DNA of 64,000 bases from Amphiscolops sp. MND2022 (taxonomy: Eukaryota). The notes under the pieces were generated by a model. It saw nothing but the letters and a program-made list of their open reading frames with translations, had not been told where the DNA came from and made no database searches. The DNA lies in contig OZ076409.1 of NCBI GenBank assembly GCA_964187785.1, forward strand, positions 22,942,001 through 23,006,000, read 5' to 3'. Below are positions 4,547 to 63,800 of the stretch, piece by piece (the first letter of the stretch is position 1; the number at the start of each line of letters is the position of its first letter). A program made the translations under genes and the position numbers.

Positions 4547-5616
4547 GTCTAAACAGAAAGAGATAAACTCAAGCGGATAACTTCCTGAGAAAGAGTCCAT
4601 TACCGCGTTAAAAAATCTTCCGGAAGTAGATATTTCGAACTCAAGTGAATACTTGTGTTATGGGACAGGAAGTACGTGAATGAAATGAGAGCCCTGATCA
4701 AGCCTCAGATTAATTCAATACTAAAATAGAAACAAAACCTGAAAAGCTACTGACCTGTTTGAAAGCAAAGAAGGATGTCTTGAGAAGGGAGTACTGTGTA
4801 CAGTTAGACTGGTGGTCACTGAATTGGAAGCTGAGCGATCAGTAGAGAAGGATGACGAAGCTGGACTGGTGACAATACAGCAGCAGTTGTAGAGAGAAGA
4901 CAAATTCTTCTTTGATGAAGGACAAGAAAGATTGCTGAAGATGAATTAGCAAAAGGGACTCAGTGTCGATTGTCCTAGGATAACCCAAGAAATCCACAAA
5001 AGACGTAATTGGAAGAAATTACAAATGACTACTTTAAATGAATACGGAGTAAATACGACTAGAAGACTAAAAGACTAGAGATGATTAAATACTGGACGAT
5101 AATACAAAGAGTAACTGGAAAGAATTTGAAAATAATGAATTGAAAAGAGAATTGGCAATGTGACAAGATGTCAAAGTTGGAGTTCGTGGCTATACAATTT
5201 GGTGTCAAATTTACAAGATATTTACAATTTACACTATTATGTGGATAGAGTCTGCCAGCAATATCTACATTCTTCCATTTATCTTATTTCGAAACTTTAC
5301 CATTTTATTAGATATTTCATGATTTTACCAGGATTTTATTTAATTTCAGGTCATTTTATATTATTCCTTATATGGATTTACGACCTTGGGAAGCCATTTT
5401 TATTCAAGAGAAATTTTGCTGCATTCCTATTGGTTGATCAGAAACGCTGATGGACGGCGTGGCCGTCTGCCATAGCTTCACCCTCTTGAAACTTTTAAGT
5501 GCTTGTTGAGTGTTAATAAACACTTGAAGCGGCACTCTTAATATGGAGGTGTTGACAGAACTGATGTAAGCCAACAAGGCAGTTGTCGGCGTTATCAAAG
5601 AAGGCAAGACGGAAAG

Positions 5617-17694: not shown

Positions 17695-17726
17695 AACAGT
17701 TTCTCTCGCAAGGGTTACTGATGACG

Positions 17727-23129: not shown

Positions 23130-23571
23130 TTTGTCGTTCAGCTGTCGCTTGTAATCTGATTGTTTAACAATGAATTTTAGGATTGAATAGGATTATAGAA
23201 AATGTTGGGATAAATCCCTTCATTCTGATTGGTTGATCAGTCGTTTTAATCCTTTTTTATTCCCAGGTATTGACGTTTTGCCAATGTCGCGTTTTTATTG
23301 GCTGGGAATTTAATGATTCGTTTAATCAAGTTTGTCAACGTTATGCTGACGTCAGTTTCGCTAGCTTTTAACTAGCTTTGATTTTTGTCACCATTTTGAT
23401 GACGTCAATGTAGATTATAGGATTAATATTTTATCCCTGATAACCTTTTTGTCGACGCTATGACGACGTCAATTTCGTTGGTTATTAGCCAACTTCAATT
23501 TTTGTCACCGTTTTGATGACGTCAGTCTCGTGTTCATTTTCTTTTTTCCAGATTCTTTTGCTGTTTGTTCA

Positions 23572-26500
23572 ATGGACTCTCGACCAACTACACCTCTTGT
23601 GGTTGATCCCGGGGCTCAAAGTGGTCATGAAACCCCATTTGTGTTTTCCGAAGCAGATGTGCGCCGAAGCGATGCAGCTGATATCCGTCTGCCTGCGATT
23701 GGTAAGTTCATCATTCCTTGATCCTATAAGGTTTTGTGAAATACACTTTTAACATATTGGCCTTTTCCTGTATCTGTATTTCCACATCTTAGATTTTCTT
23801 GACGCGTCGATGAATGGAATGTGATTTTCAGTGCTCTGCGCTACACCTCCTCTTCTTTCCGTCCCCGCTGATTCCTCAGCAGAGAAAATCGTTGCTCAGG
23901 ACGTTGCTCCTGTACAGTTGTCCGTCCCTCATATTCTTCCCTCTGTGCCAGAGGTTGTCAGTTGTCAGTTCAACGTCAGCAACTCGGGTTGACACTGGCC
24001 TCCGAGAAGAGTGTGAAGTTGTTCCTGAGGCTCGTAAACTGGGCTTGTGGTGTCTTCCCCTAAAGTTCAGCAGATGTCTCAGAGTGTTCAAAAGAAATGT
24101 GTGTTGTCAATGGCCCCTCGTGGAGGCGAGGGAACATCCCCCGGCAAGAATAAAAACTGTGCAGGGGGCGCGTATGGTTTCTGGTGTGGCTTCCTCAGAT
24201 GTCTCTCTTCGCTTCTCATCATTTCTGTCACGGTTTGTCTAGGACATGCCAGAAACGTGCGGCTTCACATGCTGCTAAAGAAGGTTAGGTTGTTTATAAT
24301 TGGACTAGGGTTGTATTTTCTGATCAGGTTTTTACTATGTGAATTTCTAGTTGTTTGTAGTAGTAGCCGCTCAGCGTGAAACGTCAGGAAGCGTCGTCGC
24401 ATAAACTGTACACCCAGCAGACTGCAAGATTGTGCTGGTTCTAAGGGTAATGTTCAATTCACATAGTTTCTTAGGGGGGTTTGTCCTATTGTATTGCCAT
24501 TATGTTGTATTTTTATTGATAGTGACAGTGACGACTCTGAGGATTTTGCTCTGGCTGATATGGTCCACGGGGTCTCAGCGTTGGGCGGAATGATTACGTC
24601 TGGAGCTGAAGATCACAATGTGGAACCATTTATACTTAGTGAGTCATTTGTTGACTTTTACTCATGTTGTGCTCGTGTACGTTGTGTGTTGTCATCTTTG
24701 GGTTTGTTTGCATGCGCTTTTGAATTACGTGTTTTTGTAGGGATGCAGGCACTCGTGGCTCGCTTGGAGAGGAGTTTGAAGAAAGCAGTCAGTTCTGGTC
24801 CACGAGTACGCAAGTACAGTAGTCGTCATCACTTGAGGAAGGACATGGTTAGAGATCATCCAGTGCTGAGCGTGTTCGTCAGTGGAGCTAGTAATGCAGT
24901 TTCCACTCAATTCCATTGCATGATTTGCCGACGGGATGTATCTATGCTGTTCCGTGGCTCCAGGGAATGGTCGTCATTTTGCATCAAACAGACACTGGGA
25001 GCAGGATGTTGCTTGTCGTGTTCAGAACGATATGCCTACGTTCAACCGTCAAATGGAGCCCCTTGTTGTGACGTCTGAGCAGCGGACCAAATATATGAAC
25101 AGTGAGCGGTTGAATAAAGACGAGGGATTAAGTTTCTCAGAAGATCTGTTGCCCAGTTGTACTCGCGTGGAATTCACTGTGCCTTTGCTGACAATGGTAA
25201 CTTGCATTGCAGAGTTGTGTCGTTGTGGAGGTATTGTGCTTCTGCGAGGTATTGAAGTATCGAAAACTTAATGGCTACTCTGGGACGCAAAGACTCTCTT
25301 TACAATTTACAGTGGGATCGCTCTGAGACTCTGGTTGGTGTTTTTTTGCTTTTTTGTGTGGTTTCGATCGGGTTTTTGTTGTTTCAGTCGTTGATTTGTC
25401 GTGCTCTCTTCCCTAAGGTTCTGCAGTCTATGGTGTTGCGAGTTGTGAGGTTCGGCCATTACAGTGTGACGTTCGAAGAACGGTCAGATGGTCAGTACTG
25501 TTTCGTTCGCACATGGGAAGGCATTTCCTTACTGTGCCTGTGTGGGAATGTGGAAGCCCCTGGACAGCGTGTGCCTCATGCGGAATTATCGTCCCTTTTG
25601 CGAGTGGTGTCCAGTTTGCCCTCTGGATTGATGACTATCAGTATTCGTGGTGGGAGCCCGTCCTTGTTGCGAAATATGGGCGCTGAGCGGTCGGATGGAC
25701 GTCGTTTCATCGTTGCTCGAGAGTTTTCCTCGGAGATGTTTCTCCACTGGTACCGGGTGGCGCATCAAGAGATCTTCGGGATGTTAAAGGTAACCACCAT
25801 GATTGATTACCTGATGTTACGTTTGCGTGGGGCTTTGCAAGAGCCTTGGATGGAGGACGTCCCTGCGCTACGACGTTGCGTGGTCGCTGGTCGAGTGACT
25901 TTTGCCGAGCTTCGATCTCGTGATGTTTCTGATCTCGTGATTGTATGGGACAGAGTCTGTGCATATGTCCGCTACACTGGCCCTCGTCACATTAAAAGTG
26001 CTTTCGACAAAGTACGTCGCCTTCATTTTCGGTTTTTATTTGCGTTCTTCTTTCGCTGGTTGAGATTTACTATCCCTTTGGATTGTGACAGAAATTTTTG
26101 ATCGCTCGTTGCTTGTAATTTGTATATCATCTTTATTGACGTCCTTGTTGTTTTTAGATGCGGGGCACAGATTGTTTAGTGAATAGCGAGTTGACGAATA
26201 AACTTCGTTCGAAACTTCTGCTTCATATTCCTAATTTGTGTAAGTCATCAGTGTTGCATGATTGTTTCGGACTGGGCTTTGTTCTTGTATTCTGTTATTC
26301 CTGATTGATACTTGTGTTGTTTCTGGCCTTACTGTGTTCTTTGTTTTTCCTGTCCTGCTTTGGGTTATTATGTAGTTTTGTTTAGACCACACCACATTCA
26401 AGAAGCAGAGGGCGGGGCGAAGTGACTATGGCTTTCACGCGTACAGTGAAGTCTGCCAGTTCATTTACTGCCTTCTAACTCGCAGTCTGAAATTGTCATG

Positions 26501-27737
26501 TCTTCCAGAGCTCAACGACTGGGAGTCGTACATGGACGCATCTAAAGTTGCCAAGTTGGAAAAGATTACAACCAGTGAGTTCCTGTTGAATGACGATTTC
26601 GGGCTGGAAATGAGTCAGTCTAGTCATAGTGAAGTCTGTGATTTCCGCAATCGTTGTCGGGAGTTTGTGGATCATTCGGTGAACGTTTTGCTGGTTGAAC
26701 ACGTTCTGTCCGCAGATTTTTCCTACGGAATCTACTGCTTCTGTCCGGAACTCTTATTGGAGGGAGATGACCAGCGAGTCTTCCGATTTTTCTCCTGTTT
26801 AGTCCGTCTTTTTGAGCGCAGTCGTTGCGTTTCTAGTAAGAAGAGTTTACTACGTTTGTCGTGGATGTTCGGAAGCGGCACGCTGAGTCAGAGTTGAGTG
26901 CCGAGGATACTGGAGACGTAGTGACGTTTCTGTTGGCCGACTACAGTTTCACGTCACGAAAGCATTTGGTGGAAGTCTTCAAATTGTGCTGTTTTATTGT
27001 GGAACAGCCCCTCTTGTTTTGCCCGAGATTATCAAAGAATCGGATAATTGTGCTGTACCCCCCCCCGCTGTAGTGACGTCTTGTCTGAAAGGCGTTCAGA
27101 GTTTGGTGTCCTCTTCTTCGTATAAACAGGGTGCGTTCTTCACTGAGGGTACTATGGAAAAAGTCCGGGATTCCATTGCCTGTAGTCGTCAATTTATGTC
27201 TTCTTCGGCTTTTGATCCGTGGGATGTAACGCACCTGCTGATCGTACTGAGTTCGTCACTCGTCACACTGTTGCTTGTGATATCATTTTGGCGCGCAAGA
27301 ATGAAGAGGCTAAGGAAGGGTTACATGGAGCCAACCGTTCGCCACGTTTTGTACGTTTTGCTGCTTCCAGTGATTCATCTGCGTCTGGATCGGGAACTTT
27401 GCCAAGGACTCTAATCCCTGAGACATCTTTTGATTTTGTCTCGCCCAAAGCGATATCTACAGATTGTGGTAGCCCTGGCACTTCGAAAGGTGGAAAAAAA
27501 TCGTCCCGAATGACCTTGTAGTCTTTGTTGAATCCGGGGAAGACCGGTGAGAGAGTGGAGACAGATGCTTCTGAGGCGTTACGAAGGAGTGAACGGGAAT
27601 CAGTCAAGATGAGTGGTAAAGCAAGTGGTGATTCGTCAGTTGTCAGTAAGAAGAGTTCCGGAAAAGGTCGCGCTTCCGATTCAAGAAATAGTCCGAACGG
27701 AGTTACAGTCACTGAATTGATTTGCGTTTTGAATTGA
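23572..27737 (+). pseudogene. Antisense spliced BED/hAT-like gene of element A (frameshifted)
   Basis: FHCMICRRDVSM..RHFASNRH; introns 25334-25387, 26012-26157 and 26240-26385; C-terminal RKHLVEVFKLCC, FDPW and PGTS blocks shared with B and C. Confidence 0.8.
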
Positions 27738-45350: not shown

Positions 45351-47259
45351 TGTGTTGACCGTGATTCGAGAGTAAATCACTTGGTTCAACCGATCTATAC
45401 CTATAATCCGTGTTTCCTGCGTCCTCGTCATCGGGGTCATGACGCACGTTGTTAGGTGGTTTTTCTGCCAGTGTATCAATTTTAGAAGTCAGGTTCTCTA
45501 TCATCTTCAGAATCTCGCGCTGTCCGACTTCTGCGTCTTTGATTCTTTTACTTACAGACTTTTCTATCTTTTCAGATAATTCCGTAAAATCTCTATCAGA
45601 CAAACTAGGTGCGTTTTCAGTTGTCATGCTAGAAGATTCAGGTTCGTCTAAGGAGTTCACAGGGGAATCCCTTCTGGCTTTTCTTTTGGAGCTACGTTCT
45701 GGCATCTTACTTAGGCTTGGTAATTCTCGATTTTCTTTTTAAGGAAATTAGAGCAAGTTCTCAAGTGACAAAGCGTGATGTTTCAAGATTTTTAATTATC
45801 GTTAAACGGAAAATAATTGTTTCGCAAAATAACAAAATTCAACTAAAATGGCTTTTAGCTCCCATTGTATTTATACATTCCATCCCGGAAAGCGGGGAAA
45901 AGACACGAACATACTTCAGATTTTGTTCAGTCCGGCGTCCGTCCGAGGCAGGGAAACAGGAAGTTCAGTTCCGCTTTGTCGAACTCAGGCTTTCAGCTTG
46001 TTCATGCTTTCCGAAGAAAGCACGCGTCCACTTCCTGTCTGAGTTGCGACTCCGCTTCCCTTCGCCTCCAACTTCCCGCCTCTTCAGGACGCCGAACTGA
46101 AAAAACTATCAAAGACACGCGCAATGAGTCATTGAATGAGATTGATTAACTGCACAATATTGGGAAAAAATGATGACAACCAATTTTCCTTTACAAATAT
46201 TTCTCTAAATTAAATAAATCAGCAACAATTTGGATGAAATTTAACACAAATCACACATTAAGTTTTAAATGAAAGAGTAGAATTGCTTCTACAGTATTTA
46301 CGGCTCTGATTTTTGGTTAAGATCACGAAGCCTGGTCCCAGGCCAAAGTCCGGGACGGACAAATTTGTTCAATGAGTAAAGCAACTATTAATTATAAACA
46401 GCATCAGATACATTGTTCAGAAAGGTATTTAATGCAATTAAACGGCAACAGATTCAGGGAACAGGATATACATGTTATTAACACTTGGTTTGATATTCGG
46501 TACTAAATCTTTGGTCCAGGCTGCGGTTCAGGCCTGTTTATAGATTAATCAATATTTACATGTAAAAGAACGTTGTATGCGATATTTTAAACGACGATAT
46601 AGTTCAAGATCATAGATAATAGTCTCTAGATTCATTTCGAGACAAAGTTACATGATAGCATCATCATCTTTCACTTTCGTGATTGATTTATTGTATGTAT
46701 ATCTCAGGCCGCATCCCAGGCCGCGGTACGTGATGTTCTATTAAGTTAGCACAGAAATCTCAATTGTTGGTATATTTGCACTCGTATTGTTAATAAATCA
46801 CTGCACTAGACATTAGTTCATTTACATGTATTCATTATAGCGCGCACTTGTATATTAGTTTGCTGAGTTTACAATTCTCAGGCTGCCTGCCAGGCCGCCG
46901 CTTTAGTGCGAGTATTTGAGGCCGGCTGCGTATTAATCAGTTCCCTCTTTAATTTCTCGGTTCGTTCACTGAGCGGTGCAATTCGATTATTATTATTACA
47001 TAGTATTGTAATATTATTAACTGCACGAATAGCTCCGTTATTCCGTAAGTACGTATTTATATAAGTGTACATTATTATGATAATAATACTACTATGCATA
47101 TATTTATTTATTTACCTTCAAATTTATATTGTTTAACTCTTTTGTTTCTGATTGTTTGTCAGCTGTCTATTTCCTCTTCTTTTGTTCTTTTCCCAATTTA
47201 TTCTTCGAAGACTGGGTTGTGTTTGTTGCAATACTCGCAGCTCAGACGGGGCTGTGACA
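45351..47259 (-). repeat. 3' LTR of element B (1909 bp)
   Basis: Direct repeat of 58902-60808; contains a second copy of the Gag N-terminus (ORF 45262-45705 reads out into the flank). Confidence 0.97.
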
Positions 47260-47782
47260 GTCCTCGGCTTCTGTACCCAGTTCCCTCAGGAAGGAGAAAT
47301 TGGGAAATTGATCGAATCGGGGTCTCAAATAGCGTTGGGAGATCGTCAGTTAAGGAATTGTAGGATCGCCAAGATGAGTCTGTCTCCCAATCGCTTCCCG
47401 AATAGTACCCTTCTGAGCTACTGTAGAAACTTATTGGGCTATCAACGTTGTAGTCGGGATTATCGTAAATTTCACGGTCGAATTGCCTGACCGGACTCAC
47501 AAATGTGTCTTCGGGGATCACTGGGTTGTCTTGCGTGAAACGTCTGATGACTCCCGTCTCGCTTTCTGTGCTCGTGGTATCGGCCGGCGCTTCTTCATGT
47601 ACTAGGACTACGTGGTAGTCCTGTGTTTTAATGATTTCATAAGTAATGTTAATTTGCCGCGTGGTAATTAGGTTATAATCTGGTGGCAGTGTACCTGCTC
47701 TTTGTTCGGGCTGCTGCTGTTGATCTCGTTCGAGAATGAAGACGTCTTCGTCCATTTTGCTGCTTGAATTTGGATGATTCAT
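47198..47782 (-). CDS. Acidic accessory ORF of element B running into the 3' LTR
   Basis: Intact 194 aa; the last 62 nt (LSQPRLSCEYC...) lie inside the LTR. Confidence 0.65.
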   Translation of the reverse strand: MNHPNSSSKMDEDVFILERDQQQQPEQRAGTLPPDYNLITTRQINITYEIIKTQDYHVVLVHEEAPADTTSTESETGVIRRFTQDNPVIPEDTFVSPVRQFDREIYDNPDYNVDSPISFYSSSEGYYSGSDWETDSSWRSYNSLTDDLPTLFETPIRSISQFLLPEGTGYRSRGLSQPRLSCEYCNKHNPVFEE

Positions 47783-48001
47783 TGTAGTAGTAAACTAAGC
47801 GTCAGTCAATTTTTAGTACAACTGATTTGCTTCGCTTGGAAAATTTGTTCACACGGTTTGTGTCAACTCCATGAATTGTTCAGCTGGCAGACTGAACAAC
47901 TCTCCTTATATAGTAAATAACTTTTGATAGTAGAAATTTCCTTGCTTTACGCCACATCTTCTTTGATTTTATGCTGGTTGTTGTTTTTAGATTGTTTGAA
48001 A

Positions 48002-51000
48002 ATGAGTTCAACTGAAGCTGAAAATGTTGTCTTGAGTCAAAGTCGGGCCGTCGGATTGAAGGAGAGCGAGGCCGAGGTCGAGTCTGTGGTAGAGCCTGTC
48101 GCGCAAGGTGAGCGGACAGTGGTTGCTTCTGACGAGGTACAAGGTGGAGAGGCTGGGGATGCAGCTAATGAAGAGCCCGTGGGTCCTGGATTTAAAGAGA
48201 AGGGCAGTTCGAGTGAGGACGGTGAAAGCTGCGCTGAGACGGAATCGTACCATTCAGCAACGAGTGACGGTCGTCATGATCTCAACTACCTAGCGGACAA
48301 GAAAGGTAGGCTTTCTAGAAATTAAATGGTGGCCAGCCTTTCTAGGGTTTGTTGAACGCGTTCTTTTACTTCTACTTTCACAGTGACTGATGATGAGCTT
48401 GACGAAGATTATGCCCCTAGTTTGTCTACGAGGTCGCAGAGCAAGAAGAAATCACGGTCCAGTCGGGTGCTTTCAACGAGTAGTGCGAAGCCTTCTAAGC
48501 GTGTGCGTTTGGCTGACGTGATTTCTGGAGCGATTCCCAAGCCTCCTATGATGGGCGACAGTTCTGGGGGAGATTTTGAACCCGCAACAATTTCTGCATC
48601 CAAAACACTTGCAAGTAGGTAATCTTTCTCTTTCTTGTCTCTATGAAGTTTTCTTCGGGTTTTCATTTGTGGTTGTAGGGTCTACATTCCACTTCTGTAT
48701 ACTTCATATTCGCTTTTGTTGTACTTGCCGATCCTTATCCTGGTCTGGGGGATTGCTCCGATCCAGAAAATGATGTGTTTGCTGTTGAGGCTGCAGTTGG
48801 GACGCCGGCCCCAGAAAGCGACGCGTTGTCGGTGTTGCCTGAAGGTCTTTCTCGTCAGACACGGACACAGCACAATCGTCCAGCTGTGGGGCTCGAGCCT
48901 TCAGTGGTCCATAATGAGTGGGAGAGAGGCACAGTTTTTAAGTTTCTGTTGTACAGTGTTGCTCATTGTAGTTATGTCGTAGGTTCGTTGTATTCCGTTA
49001 TGTAGTGTGTCTTGATTTGGTGAATGGGGTTGTTAACGTGTATTGTGATATTTTAGTTGGTCTGAAGTCTGTTCCTCCGGGTTCCCCCATGGTGATGACG
49101 GCAGCTCAATGCGTCATTCTTGCGCGGAGTGCGGCCCGGGCAGAGCGCCGTGAAACTTTAAAGGAGACCAAGACCTTGGCGAAGCGTAAGTAGTAGTGTG
49201 TCTTGTTGATTGTTTTTCCTGTCATCTGATTTCTATTATTTCTGGCTGTATTTTGTATTGTATTGCTTTGTTTATTACTTGCCGACTGTGTCTGTATTCT
49301 TCTGTTCTGCTTGTATTCTGATTGTTGTAAAGGTGTGTGATGTTTAGAATTTGAAGAATTATCACAGTTACTGAAGTCGAGGGGCATCGATGCAGAGGAC
49401 CCTGGTTGGGTCATGGATCCATTGGAGGCCAAGAAGGAAAAGTTGCTGGCGCGAGATGAGGAGCGCCCCAAGAAGCAGTCCGAGCGACATGTATTGACCA
49501 AAGCCATGAGCAATCACCCAATCCCGAAGTTGTTTGTGAGTCGGAGGAGCGACAAAGGGCCGAACGGTTTCAATTGTTCGATCTGTCAAAAGGACGTGTC
49601 CTTTTTATCGCGTGGGCCACGGGGTATCTGGAGACACTTTAAGTGTAAAGGACACTATGCCAAGGATCGCCGTTATCGCTACGATCATGATGAGATGATC
49701 TTTACTGAGAAATTTGATGCCATTCCCGTTGTCGAATTGACGGTGGAACATCGTGCTGAAATTGAGCAGACTCCGCCTGTGGTGTTGGGCAAGATGAACA
49801 AGTTTTTGGAAGACGAAGTTGACGCGCTGGTCAGTGTTCCATCCAACGTGCCTCCGACTACCCTTGTAGGCTGTCTGTTCGAATTGCTGCGGAGTGGTGG
49901 GTCACAGGTGTTTCTCCGTCGTATTTGGAATCAGTTCCGAACGACCCTGCCTGTGGAAAGTCCCTATGCTTCAGTGACCTGGAGCAAGACAGAAACGTTG
50001 GTCGTCCTTGTTCAGACCCTCTATCCTCGGGTGTTACGTCGTGTAAAGTCATGGCTTGGGGACGGCCCATTCAGTTTGGCGTTGCATAGTTCTTACTCCG
50101 GTGTGAAGTGCATCGTCCGTTGCTGCCCCGGTGACTCTTTGCGTGAAGTGCACCTTGTGGATGAAGATCCGAGGGATGTAGCTTGTGGGGCGGAGGTACA
50201 GTGTCTGGCCCGTGCTCTGTCGCTAGTCTCAACTCGGCGGGGGCCCGCTGCTATTCTGGGTTGCTCTCCTGTGCTTTTTAACGCCTATGTGGACTGGTGT
50301 CGCTCAGTGGGTCGGCCTTCTCCTATCGTGGCTATTTCGTTTACTGGAGATGTATTGCGTCGACTTGTAGGTGAATCCAGCTTGGCGTGTGTGGGTGCAG
50401 TCGATCCTTTTGCTACTGTAGATTACCTGGCTCACCGTCTCATGAGGATCCGCAGTCAGGCGTGGTTGCTGGATCTGCCCAAATTCCGCATGTGTCTGGA
50501 AACTGGAGTCGTGCCCTTCGCCTCATTGTGTGATGTGCTGCAAGAATTGTTAGATCACTGGCCTGATGTGAAGCTCAGTTTGTCAAATGACGTTTTCGTG
50601 ATGAAGAAGGTTGCGAATGTTGTGGACCTAGATTCCTTGCTTTGTTCTGATCGCTTGGGTCTCCCTCGCTTGTCGCTATTACATGTGGTGTTGCTGTGCT
50701 TTCGCGCCAACTTCAAGAGACTGTTTGACTCTGGTGCAAAGGATTATGCCTGTAGGAACTATTCCGACTTTTGCTTCTTCTATTGGAGCCTTTTAAGTGA
50801 GCCAGGTGTTCTAAAGGCATTGCGGGGTTTCGAGGACACTCCCCGGCGGGCCTTCCTTCGCGAATGCCAGAGCTATTTGTTGGAATTGTTGAAGCAGTTG
50901 GGGTCTTCTGCCTATGCCAGTTCTCGGGTCGCCCGTTCCCTTAGTTGTCTTAGCGTGGACATGCTCTTGGGTGGCGATGCTGATTATGTAGTGGAATTAT

Positions 51001-51695
51001 TTCAAGAACTGGTTACATGTCTTCAAGAAGCTGGCTACCTTGATAATGTGGATCGCGAGTCGTCGGTGAATGAGTTTAAGTCACTAGTAAAGGATCTTCG
51101 TCAGTTATCAGCAGATTCATCGCAGATTGTTGATGTGTTTGAGTATTTGGAGTCTGTGCATAGCTACCAGTGTCGGATACATGTGAAAGAAGTCGTTCAT
51201 TTGGTTCGTGTTGTTGTGTGTCCTGCTCCTGAGCCCATGCCTCCGGTCGATGTTTCATTCAGTGGGACTCAATTGCCTCCTTCTGTTATCCGTTCCGGTC
51301 TGTATGCAGTTCAGTCATTCGTGGTTCATCCGAAATTTATGTCGAACGATTTGTTGACTGTGGAGTGTCTCGCTGAATTGAAAGCTAACTTGCCCGTTGG
51401 ACATCAATTTTTAGCGCGCAGTTCATTTGATCCTTGGGCTGGGGTCAGTCGCCATTCCAGTGAGGAGATTTTTGCAAGCCTGTTTGGCTGTTATACTGCA
51501 TACTATAATGGACAAGTTGAGGAGTGGAGGATACGGACGTCAGGTCAGTCGGCTCGTCGAGGATGCTCTGGTTCCATTGTTGCTGATGGCGCCTCGTCCA
51601 CTGCTGTTGCTGAGAGTGGATCCGATGTTCCTGGGACGTCTTCTCAAAGTCAGAAAGGGAGTAAGAAGAGTCAGAAGCACGGGAAATCTTGCTGA
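48002..51695 (+). CDS. Antisense spliced BED/hAT-like gene of element B (5' exons partly uncertain; last exon 49348-51695)
   Basis: Phase-compatible GT-AG introns 48306-48383 and 49186-49347; acceptor at 47990 before the ATG; FNCSICQKDVSF..GIWRHFKCKGH BED motif; 760-aa open frame. Confidence 0.85.
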
Positions 51696-52029
51696 ACTTT
51701 TGTTGTTGATTGATTTTGTTGATGAACTTTTGATTGTATTTATATTGTATTTACTATTTTGTTGAACCCATTATTGTTCTCTTGTTATTCCTGGGGTTCC
51801 GCGTGTCGGTTCCTTTCAATCATCAAAAGAATTGAAGAATAATGCTCCTGCTGTAGGGGGTAAGATAGAAAAGCTCAGTTGAGTATAGGGCTTGTCAATT
51901 TAGCATTTAGCCTCTGAATTGTTTTCATCCAAGTCGTAGAGTACAGTAGAGTGAGTGAAAGCCATTGTAATTTGAAGAGATTTGAAGTCAGGTCAAAGGA
52001 TTGTGGTCCAGGCCAGTGCCTGGGCCTGA

Positions 52030-55000
52030 TTAACTTTCTGATCTCGGACTGCCGTCTGGGCCGCGGTCCGTCAAAACCTGTAATTCTGGGCCGTTGTCCA
52101 GTCCGTCGGAAGAATATGCCAAGTTTGTTGAATTGGCTGTTAGGGCAATGTAATAGGCATAATCTGGTTTCCAATTTGACGTCGGGTTATTTCGAAGGTT
52201 GTAGTGGGATTTCCGGGGGGATTGAGGTGCGGGTGTATTATTTTCGGGTTCATCATCGGTATCGATTAGTGGGTCCTGTGTCTGGTCACTTGGGTGGTTA
52301 GGAATGATTTCGGGGTCGTATACTAGGTTAGGGCTTGGGGAGCCGGGGTCATTGATTGTTTCTGGGGTTGGTTGGATCACTTCAGGTTCGGGTAATTGTT
52401 TGTTTTCGGGTTGGTTAGGGCATTCTTTGTAAAGTTCTTCCCACGCCATTGCGAAGAGGTCGTCGTGCTGTATGGCTACCTCTGTATCCTGCTGGAAGTC
52501 CTTGGGTGGGACTGTAATGTCAGGCAGCTTGTGGCTGCTTGCGAAGGGGCGTAGCCTGATTCTGTGCAGGATCTGTGTGAAATTCGTATGGAGTTTGCGT
52601 ATAAGATAGTTGTTGTTGGGTAGGGTTTTGACCACGATATATGGTCCCGTCCAAAGGTATTCCCGAAACGGCAATTTCGTCGCTTGGCTATGCGCCTTTG
52701 GATGCAAAGCATAGCAGTAGTCGTTTACTACCAAGGGGTGTGCTGATGCTTTCCGGTCATAATAACGCTTATGTCGGACGTAGGCTTGCATCAGGGCTTG
52801 TTGGCTCTGGTTGAGGATTTCTTGTGTTTGTTGTAACACTCCCTCAGCTATTTCGTGGTTGGTTGGGGCAGTGGCCTGGGGTTTAAGGCCGTACTTTAGG
52901 TCGAGTACGTTGTATGGCACTCTTCCATGGAAAACTCGGCTGGGTTCGCAGCCTAATGATGTGTGGTAGGAAGTGTTGTAATTTAAGACTGCCATTGGTA
53001 AGAATTGGTGCCACATCGTTCGCCTCTCTCCTGTCATGATTTTTAGGCTTTCTTTGAGCGAGGCGTGTGTCCTTTCTAGGATGCCTATCGTCTGGGCATG
53101 TTTGGTGGTGGCATGTTTCAGTTGGATTCCGAGAATGGCTGTTGTTTGTTGCATTGCCTCCGATATGAACTGGGATCCTTTGTCCGTGATTATCGTTGTG
53201 GGGAGATAGCAGTGTCTTGTGATGATATCTGTAAGGACCCGTGTGACAGTCTTGGTGTCGATTCTGGCGACGCTATACGCGAATAGATAACGGGAGAATA
53301 CATCCATCGCTGTGATGACTGCAGTGTATCCTCCCGAAGGGTCGTCGAAGGGGACGATGTCCATTTGTAGTGCGTCTTCTGGGCCCATTTCTATTTTGGA
53401 CATGTCGATGAGCGGGGGTGTAATGTTGGCATTTGGTATCCTTTTCGTCTGAGCGCATTCTGGGCATTGTGCAATGTGGGTGGCTATTCGGGCGGCTAGC
53501 CCCGGGAAGTAGTACTTTTCGCGGCATTGCTGGATGGTTTTAGCTATACCTGGATGTTTCCCGAATTTGCCATGATGGTGTTGTATGAATTCATCAACCA
53601 GTTGATGGGGGAGTAGTACTTGCAAGTACTTGACTTTCCCTGTATCGCCAAAATATTGTCGATACAGGAGTCCATCTTTTATGATGATGCGGTCATCTTG
53701 TGTGAGGTATTTGGCCGCTCTGGGGTCGTCGTTCAGAAGTTGGGTGTCGTACGGTTCTTTTAGGATTTTCAGTTTGAGGTTTCTGAGGACGGGGTCCTGG
53801 TCTTGGTACGGTCTCAGACTGCGCGGGAAGCTTGTGTCACTGTGAAGTTGGCGCCGCTGTTCTTGCTCTGGGTCTTGGATGTTATTGCAGACCAAGGGTA
53901 GATTCTCGGGTTGGGAGATGGTTTGGGCAGTTTCACTCTTGGGGTCGGAGTTCTGTTCATGGGGTGTGTAGATCTGTTTTCTGGCTTGTTGTTTACGCTC
54001 CCAAATGTCTTCTTCGGTCTCAGTGTCGTCCTCTGGTAAAAAATAGAACTGATTTTCTTCATGGATGTCGGAGGATTGTATGTTTACCTGGATCGGCGTT
54101 GTTTGAATGTCTTCTCTGATTTGGAGAAGGACTTTTTCTTTGGGGCTAATGTCTAATCGGGAGAGGAAATCGGCTGCTGTATTCACCCTTCCCGGCACAT
54201 GGGCGATTTTAAAGTGAAATTGCAGTACAAAATCGCAGGCATTCCAGAGGGAGGGTGGTATCATCTTGGTTTGAAAAAACCTGGTGACTGATTTATTGTC
54301 GGTTAAGACAAGGGTCGGTTTGGATGAACCCCACAAGATGTGACTATATTCCATAAAAGCGAAATAGATGACTAAAAATTCTTTGGCATAGATTGACATC
54401 TTCAACTGGGATGGTGAAAAAGTTTTAGAGCCAAATGCCACTGGAGCGTAAGTGTTCCTGGTGGATGTGATCTTTTGCTCCGGGTCTTCTTCAGTCATCA
54501 AGGCATATCCGGCATTCCTGAAGCTTGCGTCTGTCATTAGTACGTACTGCCGGTTTGGCAGTGACTGTTTGAGCCAAAGGCCGCATGCGTTTTCTAACGA
54601 TTTGTTGATAGCTTCGAAAATGGATATGAGTTCCTGATCTATCTTTACTGGCTTGTCTGATTTGATGAGTTCATGAAATGGGGCGATCTTTTCTGATAAT
54701 CGGGAAATGTAGTTTCTGTAGTAGTTTACAAAGCCGATGTATCTTTGAAGTCCCTTCTTCGTCCGGGGGAATTTGATGGTCTGAAGGTGTTTCTGGATCT
54801 TGTGGCTTTGGGGTGCCACCCCTGCTGGGGAAATTGTTCGCCCAAGGAATTCGACTTCCTTGGCGCCGAACTGACATTTGGCCATGAAGAGCTGGAGTCC
54901 TGCTGCGCGGATGCATTGGAAAACCTCTCTCAAGTTGTTCTTTAACTCCTCGGGAGTGTTGGTGGCGATTCCAATGTCATCCACGTACTGAGCGCATTTG

Positions 55001-57766
55001 CCCGCCTTTATGGCCTTGTCGAGGTATTCCCTCATGAAACTTGAAAAGGACGACAATGAGCGGCTCAGGCCTTGGGCTGCTGGCGAAGTTGAATGCTAGA
55101 AGTTGAACGGACTTCTGGTCTGCCATTTGCAGCACGTGGTAGGCTTGTGAACAATCAAGCTTGCAAAACAACTTCCTACCGGCGAGGTGTTGCGCCGCGT
55201 CTGTTAGTGTGCTCACTGGATGATTGTTGTTAATGTAATCATCAGATATCAGATTGTTGATTTTTCTGAGGTCGACTAGTAGGCGCAGGCGGCCGTTTGG
55301 CTTCCGTTGGGCGAAAATGGGGCTGGCATACTTGCTGAACGTGAGCGTGGTTTTAATCCCGAAGTAATGCATTAGGGCCAATTCGACCGTCAGATCTTCT
55401 TTCAGGTTAATGGGGCAGGGCAAACTCTGTGAGTAGACGGGGTCGTCTGTTTTCGGTGTGAGTTTGATTTTGAAATCATGGTTGATTCCAATGTCCAGTC
55501 GATGCCTTGCAAAGATGTAGTTGAACTCTATGAGTATTTCTTCGATGTCTTTCTTGTCATCTTCGGAGAGTTGTGAATCGTCCCATTTGAAGTTTTGGAG
55601 GAATGTTTTTCGTTCCTCTTCGCTGTTGTTTGGGTCGAGTTTCTGGATTTCTTCCAGTTCTTTGATTTCTCGGAGAATTCGGTTCTGGATCGGGGTGTGG
55701 GTAGCAGGGTCTCCGGGGTGGTCTGGTGTGGGAAACCAAAAGTTTTGATTGTGAGATGGTTTTTCTGGGGTTTTCAGGAGCTCGTTGATGTATACCATCG
55801 CATCTTCGGAGTCGTCTTCGGCGAGCACTTTGAGTGCTGCTGTGTTGAGTGGTTTGAGTTCTTTTGCCTCTTCGGGGGACAGGATTTTGAATTCTGCTAT
55901 TGTTGTGTTTCGTATGATGGTATAGGGTGTAGGGGTGGTATTTGTTACTCTGATGTCGATTTTTCGGTTTGAGGCTGTTGAGATTGAACTGGCTACCACG
56001 AGGGGGTCGCCACTGCAGTGGTTGGTGGCTGGGTTGATGACACCGGTTGTGTCGACGTTGGATGGTATATCTGTGGAGCCTGTTACTGTTTGTGTCGTTT
56101 CAGGGGGAATAGTGAGTGGATTCTTTATTTGTACTTTGTACAGTTTCCTGTTAAGGGTATATTCATCGGTTTCGATTGAATATGTGAGGTGGGGGAAGTG
56201 TAGCAGGCCCTGGCTCACGTCCAGGATGGCGCTGGTATTTTTAAGGAACGTGAGGCCAAGTATTGGGCCTGTCAGTCGTTTGGCTACGATAAATGTTTCC
56301 TTAAAGTTCCAGTCTCCGATTTCGAATTGGAGGATGATTGTTTTGGTGGGCGTTTCAATGTCGCCATTTGCGACTTGGAGTTTGAAAGGGGTGGTTCCAA
56401 CTCTTTAACTATGTCTTTGGGGGACATTTGGAGGATTTTATTGTAATCGGTTTCGGAGATGCAGTTTACAAGGGCGCCAGAGTCAATAAGGGCGTCCAGG
56501 GTCAAGTCCTGGAAGTCCATGGGGGCGAAGAGCATTTTGTTCTTCTTTTTGAGGGATACTGCTGAAAAGATTGGTATGCACTCTTCTTTTGTTATGGGGT
56601 CTCTCGTGAGGTATTCCGCAATCTGGGCCAGGGGGTAGGACTGGGGTTCGTCCTGGGGTGGTATGTCGTTTACAACACCGGTGGGGGATCCAGATTGTGT
56701 AATAGTTGCGGCAGGGTTGAGGGGTCGAGGCTCCTCGACTTCGTTTCCGGTCTGCCTACTGGAGAGAGAGTTGGGAACGTTGATTTCTCTGACTGGACTT
56801 TTGTTGTTCCTCTGATTTTCTGCAGTCTGCTCAGGGGGGGTAGGACCTGGGAACGTCCTGTTGCGGTGTGCCGTTTGCAGCACCTGATGGGAATTCAGAC
56901 TGCATGTTGGTTGCGTCAGCTATGATGTGTCGATCGGTGTCGATTTCATCTTCTAGCTGACTATTGAGGATAGTGGGTGAGAGCTGTGTCTCGTATTGAA
57001 CGGAGGGTTCTAGGAGAAGGGATCTCTTTTTTCGTTTGGTTTTTGGTTTGGAGATGTTTGTCGCCGAATTGGGTGTAGGTGGGGCCAGGTCCACGGCTTC
57101 GATCGTGGTCCTGTCGGTGAGGTTTCTATGTTGGTGGCTGTCTGGTGCCACGTCCATTGTTGGGGATCGTATGATACCGGCTCTGATAGGGTTTATTGGC
57201 TGGTCTTTTGGTGGAGAATGGGGAGCCGTGGTATAGGATCCCTGGTTCTTGAGTATAGGTTTGACGTTGTTCTGTGAGATATCAACTAGGATTTCTGTCA
57301 CGTGTTCGGCGTCCTGGTTGTAGTCTGGGATAGGTTGAACGGTTTTGGACCTGTGACGTGGTTCGGTGGAAATATTCATCCCTGTTTTTCTGATGTACTC
57401 TTCAAATGGCGTGCATTCCTGCTGTTTGAACGTTAGGGTCGTCTTGTCATACAGTTGAGGGTTGTAGTATGGGTCGCAGTTGAAGTCAGAGTCGTGGAAG
57501 TAGGTTTCAGGGGAAGTGCTTTCTGTTAGGGGTCGTTTAGGAGTATTGTAAGCAGTCGGGTTGTCTAGGTACCACTGAGGATAGTCTTTCTTCGCAGTGT
57601 TTTGGCGATTATATTTGTGGAGCTTGTGAATCTGCCATCTTCGCTGCCAGTCGAGAGATGGTTCTTCATGTCGCTCGGTGTTCCTTTCGTAGTCATAGGA
57701 GTTTGGGGGTTCGGATGTTGTGTACTGTCGGGTTTCGACAGTGTCCCCAAATCGAAGATGTGGCAT
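52030..57766 (-). CDS. pol: pol of element B: unknown domain, aspartic protease, dUTPase-like spacer, RT, RNase H, integrase, GPY/F; three frame disruptions
   Basis: LIDSGA; LDCSQAY; YVDD; MTDAS/KEFL/TDNKS; HHGKFGKHPG..CPEC; MDIV/TDKGSQF/ILER; WTGPY. Breaks near 56835, 56390 and 55078. Confidence 0.95.
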
Positions 57767-57768
57767 AT

Positions 57769-59256
57769 TTAGTTTTTTGATTGGCTGAGCTCCTGGGTTT
57801 GGTTTTGAGGTTGAGTGGTCTGCGGGAGCATGGGTTGGTAGCCCGTTTGGCTATTCGTTTGGTTGTTATATGGGTGTTGATGTACTGGTGTGTTGTCTGG
57901 GGGGTACTGACCTTGTGTATTCTGTGGCAGCGGGATGTTATTCGGTGAAGTTGCTTTAGGGGTCTTCCACCATTGGGGTCTGTTTGCCCAGTTGGCGCCA
58001 GAATAACATTCCTGTGTCGTATGGCTCTTTTTGCCGCAGGTTTCACATGGGTTTGTTATTTTAGTCGGTGCCCTATTGCCTCGGTTGCGGGCTTCTCGAG
58101 CAGTTTTCCGGCAGTTCTTTATTACATGGCCTGGGTAGCCACATCCGAAACACGGGCCTGCTGGTTTGGGCGGATTGGCGGTTTGTTGTGGGGCATCTTG
58201 TACATCGATTTGGTGTACTCCTGTTATGTTGGTTTCGCTTGGGGCCAGGAGTCCGTTTAACTCCATTTCACGCTCCAGGTGTTGGACCATCAGTTCGTAC
58301 GACTCTGTCTCTAGTCTTGCCTGGTTAAGGACTGGTTTTAAGTGCGCTGGCATTTTTGCAAAGAATGAGGTTTCTATGAACTTTGGGGCGTCGTCGCCAT
58401 ATGCCTCTTGTGCCAATTTCTGGTATTGCTCCAGGAAGTCTTGGAAGGTTTGGCGAGTTGGGTCGAAGTAAAGCTGTTCCCACTTACATCTTGCGGTGGC
58501 TATAGATTGTGGGCGAACGTATCGTCTTCGGAATGTGGTAATGATGTCGTCTAAACTGGCGCGGTTTGCGTCTGTCATATTGCGATACGTCTGTAGGGCA
58601 TCGCCTCTCAGGAGGGAGTGGAAGTAGTGAATTTGCTCTTCCTCTGAGATATTTGGATATACTTTGAGGCTCGTCATAAACAGGTCCTCGAAGTGCTCGA
58701 ATTTGTCATTGCGGCCATCAAATGTGGGCATGGTTGTTGAGAGTGCCTTCGGGAGTCTGGGCAGTCCCGCGCTCTGTTGTGTGGCATTCTTCAGGGATTC
58801 GAGCAATTTGTTCACGATATCGTCTGGATATCTCATGTTGGGCGGGGGTAGACTTGATGATCGGGTGGGTATGTCCTGGGTTGTGGTAACTCCTGTCACC
58901 ATGTGATGACCGTGATTCGGGAGTAAATCACTTGGTTCAACCGATCTATACCTATAATCCGTGTTTCCTGCGTCCTCGTCATCGGGGTCATGACGCACGT
59001 TGTTAGGTGGTTTTTCTGCCAGTGTATCAATTTTAGAAGTCAGGTTCTCTATCATCTTCAGAATCTCGCGCTGTCCGACTTCTGCGTCTTTGATTCTTTT
59101 ACTTACAGACTTTTCTATCTTTTCAGATAATTCCGTAAAATCTCTATCAGACAAACTAGGAGCGTTTTCAGTACTCATGCTAGAAGATTCAGGTTCGTCT
59201 AAGGAGTTCACAGGGGAATCCCTTCTGGCTTTTCTTTTGGAGCTACGTTCTGGCAT
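57769..59256 (-). CDS. gag: Gag of element B (495 aa), initiating inside the 5' LTR
   Basis: MPTFDG..LRGDALQ capsid-like region; two CCHC knuckles (CFGCGYPGHVIKNC, CETCGKKSHTTQEC). Confidence 0.95.
   Translation of the reverse strand: MPERSSKRKARRDSPVNSLDEPESSSMSTENAPSLSDRDFTELSEKIEKSVSKRIKDAEVGQREILKMIENLTSKIDTLAEKPPNNVRHDPDDEDAGNTDYRYRSVEPSDLLPNHGHHMVTGVTTTQDIPTRSSSLPPPNMRYPDDIVNKLLESLKNATQQSAGLPRLPKALSTTMPTFDGRNDKFEHFEDLFMTSLKVYPNISEEEQIHYFHSLLRGDALQTYRNMTDANRASLDDIITTFRRRYVRPQSIATARCKWEQLYFDPTRQTFQDFLEQYQKLAQEAYGDDAPKFIETSFFAKMPAHLKPVLNQARLETESYELMVQHLEREMELNGLLAPSETNITGVHQIDVQDAPQQTANPPKPAGPCFGCGYPGHVIKNCRKTAREARNRGNRAPTKITNPCETCGKKSHTTQECYSGANWANRPQWWKTPKATSPNNIPLPQNTQGQYPPDNTPVHQHPYNNQTNSQTGYQPMLPQTTQPQNQTQELSQSKN
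57772..57778 (-). promoter_or_regulatory. -1 ribosomal frameshift slippery site A AAA AAC at the gag/pol junction
   Basis: TCA AAA AAC TAA; the -1 frame continues L-N-M-P-H-L-R-F into ORF 56831-57766. The same heptamer plus stop occurs in A at 32936-32942. Confidence 0.8.
58888..58901 (-). other. Primer-binding site of element B (TGGTGACAGGAGTT; tRNA-Leu-like, identity tentative)
   Basis: TGG directly follows the LTR's CA and resembles the Leu-type PBS TGGTGTCAGGAGT; it also encodes Gag M-V-T-G-V. Confidence 0.7.
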
Positions 59257-60808
59257 CTTACTTAGGCTTGGTAATTCTCGATTTTCTTTTTAAGGAAATT
59301 AGAGCAAGTTCACAAGTGACAAAGCGTGATGTTTCAAGATTTTTAATTATCGTTAAACGGAAAATAATTGTTTCGCAAAATAACAAAATTCAACTAAAAT
59401 GGCTTTTGCTCCCATTGTATTTATACTTTCCATCCCGGAAAGCGGGGAAAAGACACGAATATACTTCACATTTTGTTCAGTCCGGCGTCCGTCCGAGGCA
59501 GGGAAACAGGAAGTTCAGTTCCGCTTTGTCGAACTCAGGCTTTCAGCTTGTTCATGCTTTCCGAAGAAAGCACGCGTCCACTTCCGGTCTGAGTTGCGAC
59601 TCCGCTTCCCTTCGCCTCCAACTTCCCGCCTCTTCAGGACGCCGAACTGAAAAAACTATCAAAGACACGCGCAATGAGTCATTGAATGAGATTGATTAAC
59701 TGCACAAATTTGGGAAAAAACGATGACAACCAATTTTCCTTTACAAATATTTCTCTAAATTAAATAAATCAGCAACAATTTGGATGAAATTTAACACGAA
59801 TCACACATTAAGTTTTAAATGAAAGAGTAGATTTGCTTCTACAGTATTTACGGCTCTGATTTTTGGTTAAGATCACGAAGCCTGGTCCCAGGCCATAGTC
59901 CGGGACGGACAAATTTGTTCAATGAGTAAAGCAACTATTAATTATAAACAGCATCAGATACATTGTTCAGAAAGGTATTTAATGCAATTAAACGGCAACA
60001 GATTCAGGGAACAGGATATACATGTTATTAACACTTGGTTTGATATTCGGTACTAAATCTTTGGTCCAGGCTGCGGTTCAGGCCTGTTTATAGATTAATC
60101 AATATTTACATGTAAAAGAACGTTGTATGCGATATTTTAAACGACGAAATAGTTTAAGATCATAGATAATAATCTCTAGATTCATTTCGAGACAAAGTTA
60201 CATGACAGCATCATCATCTTTCACTTTCGTGATTGATTTATTGTATGTATATCTCAGGCCGCATCCCAGGCCGCGGTACGTGATGTTCTATTAAGTTAGC
60301 ACAGAAATCTCAATTGTTGGTATATTTGCACTCGTATTGTTAATAAATCACTGCACTAGACATTAGTTCATTTACATGTATTCATTATAGCGCGCACTTG
60401 TATATTAGTTTGCTGAGTTTACAATTCTCAGGCTGCCTGCCAGGCCGCCGCTTTAGTGCGAGTATTTGAGGCCGGCTGCCAGGCCTCAGTTCCGTCTTTA
60501 ATTTCTCGGTTCGTTCACTGAGCGGTGCAATTCGATTATTATTATTACATAGTATTGTATTATTATTAACTGCACGAATAGCTCCGTTATTCCGTAAGTA
60601 CGTATTTATATAAGTGTACATTATTATGATAATAATACTACTATGCATATATTTATTTATTCACCTTCAATTTTATATTGTTTAACTCTTTTGTTTCTGA
60701 TTGTTTGTCAGCTGTCTATTTCCTCTTCTTTTGTTCTTTTCCCAATTTATTCTTCGAAGACTGGGTTGTGTTTGTTGCAATACTCGCAGCTCAGGCGGGG
60801 CTGTGGCA
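58902..60808 (-). repeat. 5' LTR of element B (1907 bp)
   Basis: Direct repeat of 45351-47259. Confidence 0.97.
59419..59425 (-). promoter_or_regulatory. Candidate LTR TATA box (TATAAAT), ~165 bp upstream of the gag ATG
   Basis: Similarly placed TATA elements occur in the LTRs of A (34453-34459) and C (7426-7434). Confidence 0.5.
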
Positions 60809-63800
60809 GCTACTTCCATCTAATGAACTTTGCAGCATAACTAAGGAAGTCCTTGTCACATTAAGAAACCAATTCAGAGACTTCGTGGAAGCAGAAATTA
60901 ATACCAGTAAAAAGTCACTCGTTCAGGATGACCTTTTTGTATCATGACCAGTAAAATTTAAAAACACAAAAACTAGTTTTGCTGCAGAGAATTCCATCAA
61001 ATCTTTTCAAAATGGTTCTAAGTCAAGTTCTAATGTCAAACACGAACATCTAAGTTCAAAAAGTAGCTGAGGATTTGTGTTTTCCTTTGTTACATTCGTA
61101 AGTCAGTCGTTGTGGGCCTTGGAAACGCTAGTTCTTCCACCATCTAGTAAGCTGTGAAAAATTCTTACTACAAGAGCATGTTTTTACTTTGAAATTACGT
61201 CAACAAAATAAAATTGAATGAGGAGAATTTGTTCTGTGAACGTTCGATCAGTGAAAACACTTTGGTGCCTTTGCTAGTTCCCTAAGGCAGCTTTAAGTCG
61301 ATCCACCAACAAAGCCTTTTTTCGCTCTGAGCTTTTTGTACCATCTTCAACGTGAACTCTGTTTTCTCTCATGGGGACAGTAAGTCTTAGAGGCTGATAA
61401 TGGAAACTAAAAATAGAGTGTTCCCATTTATGCGCTTTGACCTAAAATCGTTTGCAATGCTTTACAAGAAAGAAGGCAGGGCTGTCGAGACTATTTTTAA
61501 AATTTTCTGTGAAACTATATTGCTGCAAGAGTTCAATGGGTTAATTTTCCTGTTAATTTTCTAAGTTCATCTTGTTAAACTAATGCCGTCAGAAGAATTC
61601 CACCAGTTCCCCCTGATGATCAACTTCTCTATGATTTTTGACAACATTCTGATTTTTCGTTGATTTCTACCAACATTTTAGCGAAATAGGCAACTTTCCG
61701 CCCCGAACTATTTCAGTTGAAACATATTCTTAAGGCTCGAGCGTTTCCACTTATCAACGAACTTAAGAAAAAAATCTAGGTTTGGCTTCGAAAGTGTGTA
61801 AAGTATCCTTTTGTTTTGGGTATTTTATGGTTCTAACTACTACACCATGCACCCATAAAAATGACATTCTCGTTTCATATTGGTTCAATTCACCAATTGT
61901 TTATGTAAAAACTTGAAAAGTTCTTTCAAAACGCATGTATATAGTCAACTACCTAGCGATCAAGACTTTCTAAAAACTAAATATAAAAAACTTAAGACAC
62001 ACTTGTAACGTAGGTGTCTCTTACGCTGAACACTACAAAAGCTTTGACTGCTTAACGAGTTAACGGTTGCCCAGCAGCTACTCTGAACTCAAAACTTCTT
62101 AGCTTTTTATTTCTGATGATCGAGAACTAAATACAAAAATACGAAACGAGTGGCTGCGAAAATTGAATGTCCTTATTGGGCCTTACCTTAGCTTTCGTTT
62201 TAATGAACTGTAACGATAAGCGCTGGCGCTTGAACCGCAACTTAGAGTGGAGGAATTAGAACAGCAAATATAATCTGGGACCAAGATCTCCGCGGCCCTA
62301 GCTCATTTTCCCTCCGAAGGAGCCAGTCCCAAGGTGGGGGAACCGTCTTGTAGGATACTCTCTGGCCTGGTCCTAGTCTGTAACTGCTAAAAGTAACAGG
62401 CATCTTGCATGACTCAAGACCACTGCTCAACTAGCCTTTAAAAATCGGGCTGAAAATCGGTGAAGGTTGAACCGTAGTATTGGAGAATCTGATAAAATCG
62501 CCAAATTGGATAAACAGATGTTATATAACAGCTCTCGAGCACATTAATTTATCACATCGAAAAATACAACAAGAAATCAAGAGTTCAGAGTCATTTGATG
62601 GAAATTGACCTCAGCTTCCCAGCGCTAGCGCTAGTTGCCACACAGGATACCGCAGGAACACTCAGGCGAACATCTGGAACACTGGTTTTCTCTACTGTAG
62701 TAACGGATATCTCCTAGAGATGGACACAATACCGTGTTCTGTATGTGTTGGGGACGTCTTTTAGTCGTCTCCGGTGCTTGTTCGTCGCGAGCAGCGATTT
62801 CTGCTTTTTTGGGGTGCTTTTTCTGGCAGGTACTTCGTCTTGAGCATGTTTGAGTGCCACGTCAAATTTGAACGAATTTTTGACAAAATTTCTAAACATG
62901 TCGGTTGATATTGCTGTACCAGAGCTTGCCGTTACATCACTCCCCAGGCTCCTGGCTTGTCGTCCCTGGCAAGCGGCGTCTGGGCTCGTCTGGAAACTGC
63001 ATCACAGTGACTGCTGGGAACCATCATCCACACATCAGGGAACAAGGACGAGTCCTTGTTTTTCGGCAACAATTTTGGTCAGTTTTTGCGGTTTTTCTCA
63101 ACAAAAAAAACTTACTGCCTAGCTACTTGTACAAAACGCGAACGAGGTTTTAGCACCAGCTCGAGAGCTAAAGTTTTCAGCCGGTTAAATCTCGTTTGGG
63201 CAGCCAATTTGCGTAAAAACTTTATTTGCGACCAAAGTCAGCTAAAATTTCTTTTCCTAAGCATTTGAAACTTGTAGTCTTCAATTCATTTCTGGCGATT
63301 TAAAACTTTTTTTAGAGCTTGCGGGCTCTTACAGTAAACAACCAAATTGATAAAGAACACTAGACTAGAAAGAAAAATGCAACCAAGAGGGATAAAACTT
63401 CTTTTGATGGTGACAACTCAAAAACACCGCGAACGGTGTGCAACAAAAATAGCAGTTTTCTGAATAATAGTTTCTCTTTTCTTTCTGCTTGGTAGCTCAA
63501 ACCACTGGTGCAGGCGTACTCTATTGGCCGTACACCCAGTGCAACACTAATGGTACACTAATCATATAACCATAACTATGAACAAAAATTGCACTTCGTA
63601 TTGTAGCACCGTTCTGGATGAGAAGTTCTAAGGCACTGTTTTGTTGGCAGTTTTTCGAGACTGGGAGCGCGAACGCTCCCGTTAGCGGCTGGGTTCATTG
63701 AGCCGAACTGCGTCGGGTCCGCTCTTTGGTGGTATCATCGGGGGTCTGTTCTGCATTATCAGTCGACACTGACGCTCGACGTCGGGGAGAGACTTCTCTG

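Follow-up and report, generated by a model that had tools for sequence, protein, structure and literature searches.

Why does a Gypsy retrotransposon carry, on its opposite strand, a gene that resembles the transposase of another class of mobile element? The question is raised by an open reading frame (ORF) at 49413-51695 (+) of the window analysed here, the 64-kb stretch C1:22,942,001-23,006,000 of a 1.07-Gb eukaryotic assembly. The frame lies on the plus strand inside a Gypsy long terminal repeat (LTR) element, element B, in the segment separating pol from the 3' LTR. A preliminary description had read its product as a domesticated, catalytically dead hAT transposase serving as a DNA-binding regulator, an anti-silencing factor or a targeting factor. 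The Hermes-like predicted fold and the missing catalytic motifs of this antisense protein support the first part of that description. Comparison of copies further indicates that the antisense gene is swapped whole between near-identical elements, a pattern that is newly found here.

Exchange of the antisense gene between near-identical elements

Aligned with copy B76, the window element was 88-99% identical along the LTRs, gag, pol and the short sense ORF, and 52-74% identical from ~48050 to 51850, the antisense coding region. The proportion of synonymous differences (pS) between the two copies was 0.11 for the reverse transcriptase (RT) and 0.77 for the antisense gene. The same combination of a similar backbone and a divergent antisense gene was found in the pairs C49/C71, C76/C59 and Bp2/Bp7. 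Among 39 B-clade loci plus the window, seven antisense classes with 61-72% DNA identity to each other in a star-like arrangement were spread over six integrase classes, and the window's integrase class carried three antisense alleles. Integrases at least 95% identical accompanied antisense genes less than 80% identical in 122 of 236 pairs; these loci were picked through the antisense gene, and the counts are not population frequencies. In the B' group, the RT tree joined Bp5a with Bp10 (100/99), whereas the antisense tree joined Bp5a with Bp2 (100/99) and Bp10 with Bp5b (99/99), a conflict read from the supports and not from a formal incongruence test.

These comparisons show, as a pattern, that elements exchange the antisense gene as a unit and that the break points fall in its conserved flanks. 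The exchange would have come about through template switching in reverse transcription. The persistence of many old alleles suggests balancing selection, though it does not prove it. The LTR and the sense ORF reassort as a module too, so modularity is not unique to the antisense gene.

The antisense gene as a resident of one Gypsy clade

Element B has the features of Ty3/Gypsy elements, namely LTRs, a primer-binding site, gag and the order RT, RNase H, integrase (Table 1). The window copy is decayed, with two non-canonical splice sites, 36 residues missing relative to its siblings and pol broken into several frames; pol is a single long frame in sibling B75. Target duplications measured 5 bp in 10 of the 12 regions examined (2 were unreadable), and the mobile unit ends in the LTRs. 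The target duplication of Hermes is 8 bp, and neither terminal inverted repeats nor an 8-bp duplication of the hAT kind was seen. The layout of gag-pol, antisense gene, short sense ORF and LTR was the same in all 23 fully read elements, and an integrase stood beside the antisense gene in 39 of 40 further loci; both sets were chosen through the antisense gene and therefore cover gene-bearing members of the clade. Nine loci of unrelated Gypsy clades were without the gene. Genome searches for six lineages returned at least 59, 105, 138, 109, 69 and 51 candidate places, as lower bounds from lists that may overlap.

Both the RT and the antisense tree, rooted at the midpoint, divide at depth into A, B, B' and C+D, in agreement with a single ancient capture. 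The proportion of nonsynonymous differences (pN) between allele classes was 0.14-0.41, with pS saturated at ~0.7-0.8, and on these figures the antisense gene is under purifying selection across the clade. Two more members lie in the window, in elements A and C. A profile built from B-type proteins only matched both frames (E 9e-5 to 3e-23), which bears out the homology proposed earlier for the three proteins. The gag-pol of element C lies upstream of the window, and its LTRs are 99.7% identical. Element C belongs to a very young family, with many copies 99-100% protein-identical across chromosomes (the 614-1798 frame and further C copies).

In the protein library, 2,360 representatives matched the family at E<=0.001, the best 150 of which were viewed. 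Two library proteins have best matches in this genome of only ~50% and ~40%, which suggests that the family occurs in other hosts too. The metagenome contigs gave 387 pattern matches, none of them confirmed.

Exon structure and predicted promoter

The frame at 49413-51695 is a 760-codon part of a 784-codon open frame. The methionine at 49413, the first codon of that ORF, did not hold as the start: when the upstream regions of five B-clade copies were aligned, it was not kept among the alleles. Conserved instead were a start codon at 48002 and, downstream of it, four introns of the GT-AG type, with coding-like blocks in between. The gene thus likely begins at 48002, with four predicted introns upstream of the ORF. 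The five predicted exons total 3,216 nt (1,071 codons plus a stop), and their phases close. The 36 residues missing from the window copy correspond to a 108-nt in-frame deletion near 50798. The A and C types have three further introns in the core, at matching positions, through which the B and B' types read; at the first one coding is colinear, so that within a retroelement an intron has been precisely lost (or gained). Because they are antisense to the genomic RNA, introns would survive retrotransposition. The conserved block between the two divergent genes contains a TATA-like site at 47906 and is likely, as predicted from sequence, a bidirectional internal promoter.

Table 1 Features of element B and of the homologous antisense genes in the window.
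Feature	Position	Strand	Evidence or remark
3' LTR, element B	45351..47259	-	98.3% identity to 5' LTR over 1,910 nt; 5-bp target duplication
CAGGC(C/T) repeats in LTR	46328..46900	+	Mostly paired with 12-bp spacing, recurring every ~190 bp; putative binding sites
Short sense ORF preceding 3' LTR, element B	47198..47782	-	pN 0.21 vs pS 0.67 against B79
Conserved block between two divergent genes	47800..47960	.	Nearly invariant in 5 copies/alleles with differing downstream cassettes
Predicted exon 1, acidic (23% D+E)	48002..48305	+	Start codon and splice donor coincide in alignment of 5 copies/alleles
Predicted exon 2	48384..48614	+	Alignment of copies
Predicted exon 3	48725..48928	+	Both adjoining splice sites non-canonical in window copy
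Predicted exon 4	49057..49185	+	Alignment of copies
Predicted exon 5, zinc finger and hAT-fold core	49348..51695	+	Includes the ORF first described
C-x2-C-x16-H-x5-H zinc finger	49575..49655	+	Four ligands, conserved in 80/83, 79/85, 84/87 and 82/89 rows of the family
His at inferred Hermes D180 site, end of strand 1	50085..50087	+	Asp in 1/95 rows
Leu at inferred Hermes D248 site, end of strand 4	50256..50258	+	Asp in 2/86 rows
Pro-rich loop, inferred counterpart of hAT catalytic-Glu helix	51222..51272	+	No helix at 637-657, model pLDDT 87
pol (RT, RNase H, integrase), element B	52030..57850	-	Pfam RVT_1, RT_RNaseH, Integrase_H2C2, rve
gag frame, element B	57769..59289	-	Pfam DUF1759 E 9e-7, Retrotrans_gag E 5e-4
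5' LTR, element B	58902..60809	-	Primer-binding site just inside, 58890-58901
Homologous antisense gene, element C	614..4657	-	Exon boundaries 2771/2685, 2200/2131, 1915/1764
Decayed homologous antisense gene, element A	24467..27414	+	Profile match

A predicted hAT-like fold with a degenerate active site

The predicted model of sibling P0002 has an RNase H-like core with a large helical insertion, as in Hermes. The predicted order is an N-terminal C2H2 finger, a helical domain, the RNase H-like strands, the large helical insertion and C-terminal helices, so that the hAT fold beyond the finger, which had been set as a test of the hAT assignment, is present in this model. Sequence searches were largely silent. 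Pfam gave no hAT match among 21 window frames and none among 145 family members at E<=0.1 (Dimer_Tnp_hAT, DUF4371 and others), and the PDB sequence searches gave no relevant match. Against hAT frames of the same genome, mostly Hermes/Ac-like by motif reading, neither the family profile nor hhalign yielded anything significant. Searches for DUF4371 and zf-C17orf113 returned no matches anywhere, controls included, so a closer donor group is unsampled. Among the sequence-level searches only the Atlas embedding search points to hAT, with neighbours in FAM200, ZBED5, GTF2IRD2-like and C17orf113 clusters that also contain ordinary transposases. A homodimer prediction for residues 125-345, run without an alignment, scored 0.00 and gives no answer on homo-oligomerisation. 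By its predicted fold, the antisense protein is a descendant of a hAT transposase and no active member of that family.

All sequence motifs quoted in the preliminary description were present: FSLALH at 50070, IVRC at 50112, YSVTFE at 25460, YSLEFE at 2616, KHLFYIFQLSCLCL at 1108 and KHLVEVF..KLCCFIV at 26960. The C-terminal helices exist, but the pair quoted for them sits in elements C and A, outside 49413-51695, and the B counterpart lies at 51180. Likewise, an FDP stands at the hAT-like site in the C type (D in 98/180 and P in 121/180 rows), but B is without it.

Residues D180, D248, R318, W319 and E572 are reported to be required by Hermes (PMC6027215; PMC2533014), and an ordinary hAT from the same genome aligns to Hermes with every one of these motifs. 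We counted the corresponding residues over 335 non-redundant family segments (543 before filtering), placing the sites to within ~2-3 residues from motifs, secondary structure and alignment end points and not by residue-level superposition. Aspartate (Asp) occupied both inferred sites in 0/81 rows; both were acidic in 0/81, or 6/81 with one residue of slack, and glutamate (Glu) stood at the first in 20/95. A small mapping error does not rescue the first site, because Asp reached at most 17/95 in the adjacent columns 223-226. CxxH (0/77 rows), RW (0/65) and ERxFS (0/179) were missing, and in the model the loop replacing the Glu-bearing Hermes helix is shorter and proline-rich. The substituted first Asp and the loss of CxxH and ERxFS, claimed before, thus extend to the family, as does a broken DDE triad, and the antisense protein is very probably catalytically dead.

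The zinc finger has remained, its four ligands being conserved in 92-97% of family rows. Its earlier designation as a BED finger is not established, since the best structural matches of the H-x5-H finger are weak and of the U1 type (TUT4, TUT1 and spliceosomal fingers).

Possible functions of the antisense protein

Conservation among alleles was 85% in the finger, 83-94% in the following helices and 60-75% in the dead core. In B-clade LTRs CAGGC(C/T) occurs ~10 times each, for the most part in pairs with 12-bp spacing, at 5.2-5.8/kb versus 0.09-0.39/kb in two flanking stretches. The B' LTRs, whose elements have a different finger sequence, contain no CAGGCC, and 3/5 have other 12-bp pairs as their top spacing; the A LTRs showed a lag of 11 and the C and D LTRs nothing clear, in spacing counts that are inflated by overlapping words. 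No motif was common to the LTRs of all clades, the most widespread being CATGTA (6/8 LTRs). The paired repeats fit candidate sites for a self-encoded binder, with parallels in the Hermes BED domains, which act on subterminal repeats, and in the VANC motifs. Host factors would explain the LTR repeats equally well. A role as targeting factor is argued against, because the insertion flanks of the young C family (38/40 readable) showed only a weak 5-bp preference. At these 38 sites the preference was for G/C at the first base and T/C at the second, with never a G at the third.

We therefore picture the following course. A single insertion of a hAT transposon, in reverse orientation downstream of pol, would have taken place in the ancestor of the clade; the insert would then have lost its ends and active site and yet been retained. 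An internal promoter would give a spliced mRNA and a protein of ~1,100 aa, with an acidic low-complexity N-terminus, the zinc finger, dimerisation-like helices and the dead core. The finger and helices, best conserved among alleles, may bind the paired short LTR repeats, where the protein would promote transcription or counteract silencing in the way VANC serves VANDAL; the core, which varies, could form the surface that contacts host proteins. That the protein is a DNA-binding regulator or counter-silencer, likely a nuclear accessory factor on the element's own LTR, is the reading we favour, at slightly less than even confidence. More tentatively, the Gypsy clade may have turned the transposase into an intron-containing antisense specificity cassette, with frequency-dependent selection maintaining its many old alleles and with elements swapping them much as phages swap immunity regions or retroviruses env; each element would thereby have an identity of its own, in counter-silencing or in telling self from non-self.

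A protein-level arms race is a rather unlikely but serious alternative: the dead body would bind and block a host protein of defence or chromatin, or would serve exclusion among related elements, with rare alleles at an advantage and DNA binding of secondary importance. The coexistence of the seven star-like classes on near-identical backbones agrees with it, as does variation that peaks in the dead core and not in the finger. However, overall pN is far below pS, saturated synonymous sites put positive selection beyond test, and homology-limited recombination alone would yield cassette-like inheritance once alleles had diverged. Hardly more unlikely is a post-transcriptional helper that binds element RNA through the finger, or joins the particle or intasome, and aids export, nuclear entry or integration; the U1-type matches of the finger suit the former, and a transposase body is a natural clamp for DNA ends or target DNA.

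We regard as improbable a donor that was itself a host gene of hAT origin (ZBED/ZNF862-like), domesticated earlier and now serving the element with its host function. The multi-intron structure and the Atlas neighbours would suit such a donor, but those clusters also hold ordinary transposases, and no free-standing host copy was seen among the 23 full elements and 40 loci (pol or integrase alongside in 23/23 and 39/40) in a search that was not exhaustive. Finally, a neutral passenger from a decaying nested insertion, as the decayed window copy might suggest, is refuted by strong purifying selection and splicing frames conserved across alleles, and an enzyme that retains activity through substituted acidic residues, for which the Glu at the first site could speak, is contradicted by the acidic-site counts and the missing motifs; we give either almost no credence.

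Comparison with known systems

Genes of the ZBED, FAM200 and GTF2IRD2 type are hAT genes domesticated by the host as fixed genes. The antisense gene likewise reuses the hAT scaffold, and these are its nearest Atlas clusters, but in this case a transposon has done the domesticating, and the gene has multiple alleles. In predicted domain order and fold the protein resembles Hermes and other hATs; it differs in lacking D-D-E, CxxH, RW and ERxFS, in its extra acidic N-terminus and C-terminal extension, and in its class I carrier.

The closest parallel in layout is found in plants, where antisense accessory ORFs of Ty3/Gypsy elements (Grande gene23, RIRE2, Retand TRP28) are reported between pol and the 3' LTR, with their own internal promoter and conserved in most copies; their origin is given as not identified, and the review reports no similarity to other transposable elements (TEs) (PMC7264820; PMC11963269). 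The position is shared by 23/23 full elements selected via the gene, and an own promoter is predicted here from the conserved TATA-like block only. Unlike the plant ORFs, which belong to plant lineages, the present gene has a whole predicted hAT transposase fold, introns and exchanged alleles. VANC of VANDAL is a TE-encoded accessory protein proposed to work via short repeated motifs in its own element (PMC6719617). It shares with our protein candidate repeat arrays, although action on them in the Gypsy element is inferred only, VANDAL is a DNA transposon, and the likeness drawn here is one of proposed action. The plant mobile domain is likewise common to class I and class II elements (Gypsy and MULE), with a reported direction from host to MULE (PMC5418596), but it is not a transposase itself. 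In bdelloids, LTR ORF3s (GDSL, DEDDy) are captured non-env genes described as catalytically intact enzymes, in contrast to the dead transposase here, and the main text of that paper does not contain the word transposase (PMC5408684). Full-text literature searches listed no paper on a hAT-derived gene carried by an LTR retrotransposon, most hits being judged by title and abstract opening; the searches did not extend to subscription journals, Repbase entries or supplements, so an earlier description is possible.

The origin and function of antisense accessory genes in LTR retrotransposons have long been puzzling. For the present gene an origin can be named, a complete class II transposase, and there are a model of the structure, candidate binding sites and naturally occurring alleles in otherwise near-identical elements; function and specificity are thereby open to direct test. 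It would be a transposase domesticated by another transposon rather than by the host, and a route for introns to persist inside a retroelement. Similar genes have probably been missed in annotations, because the family is invisible to Pfam and yet matches the library widely.

Other features of the window and genome

The short sense ORF of element B had no Pfam match and no usable Atlas match. Similarly placed ORFs, short, on the sense strand ahead of the 3' LTR and pointing away from the antisense gene, were also found at 5542-6660 (+) and 22443-23192 (-); these ORFs show purifying selection, have no family match and reassort together with the LTR. The pol frame is intact along its length in several elements of the C, D and A types, copy B94 contains an internal tandem duplication of ~2.5 kb that covers gag, and unrelated Gypsy clades have two extra sense ORFs (~800 and ~350 aa) after pol. 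A 206-aa frame at 17119-17739 (-) has hAT-like motifs by eye (a D-G-W-T-D strand, D-N-A, C-x-x-H) and no Pfam match; it is likely a decayed DNA transposon. The window also contains arrays of an 11-bp repeat at 10771-11976, 41588-41685 and 42563-42602, a 510-bp duplication at 11334-12366 and a near-perfect 100-bp palindrome at 42396-42495.
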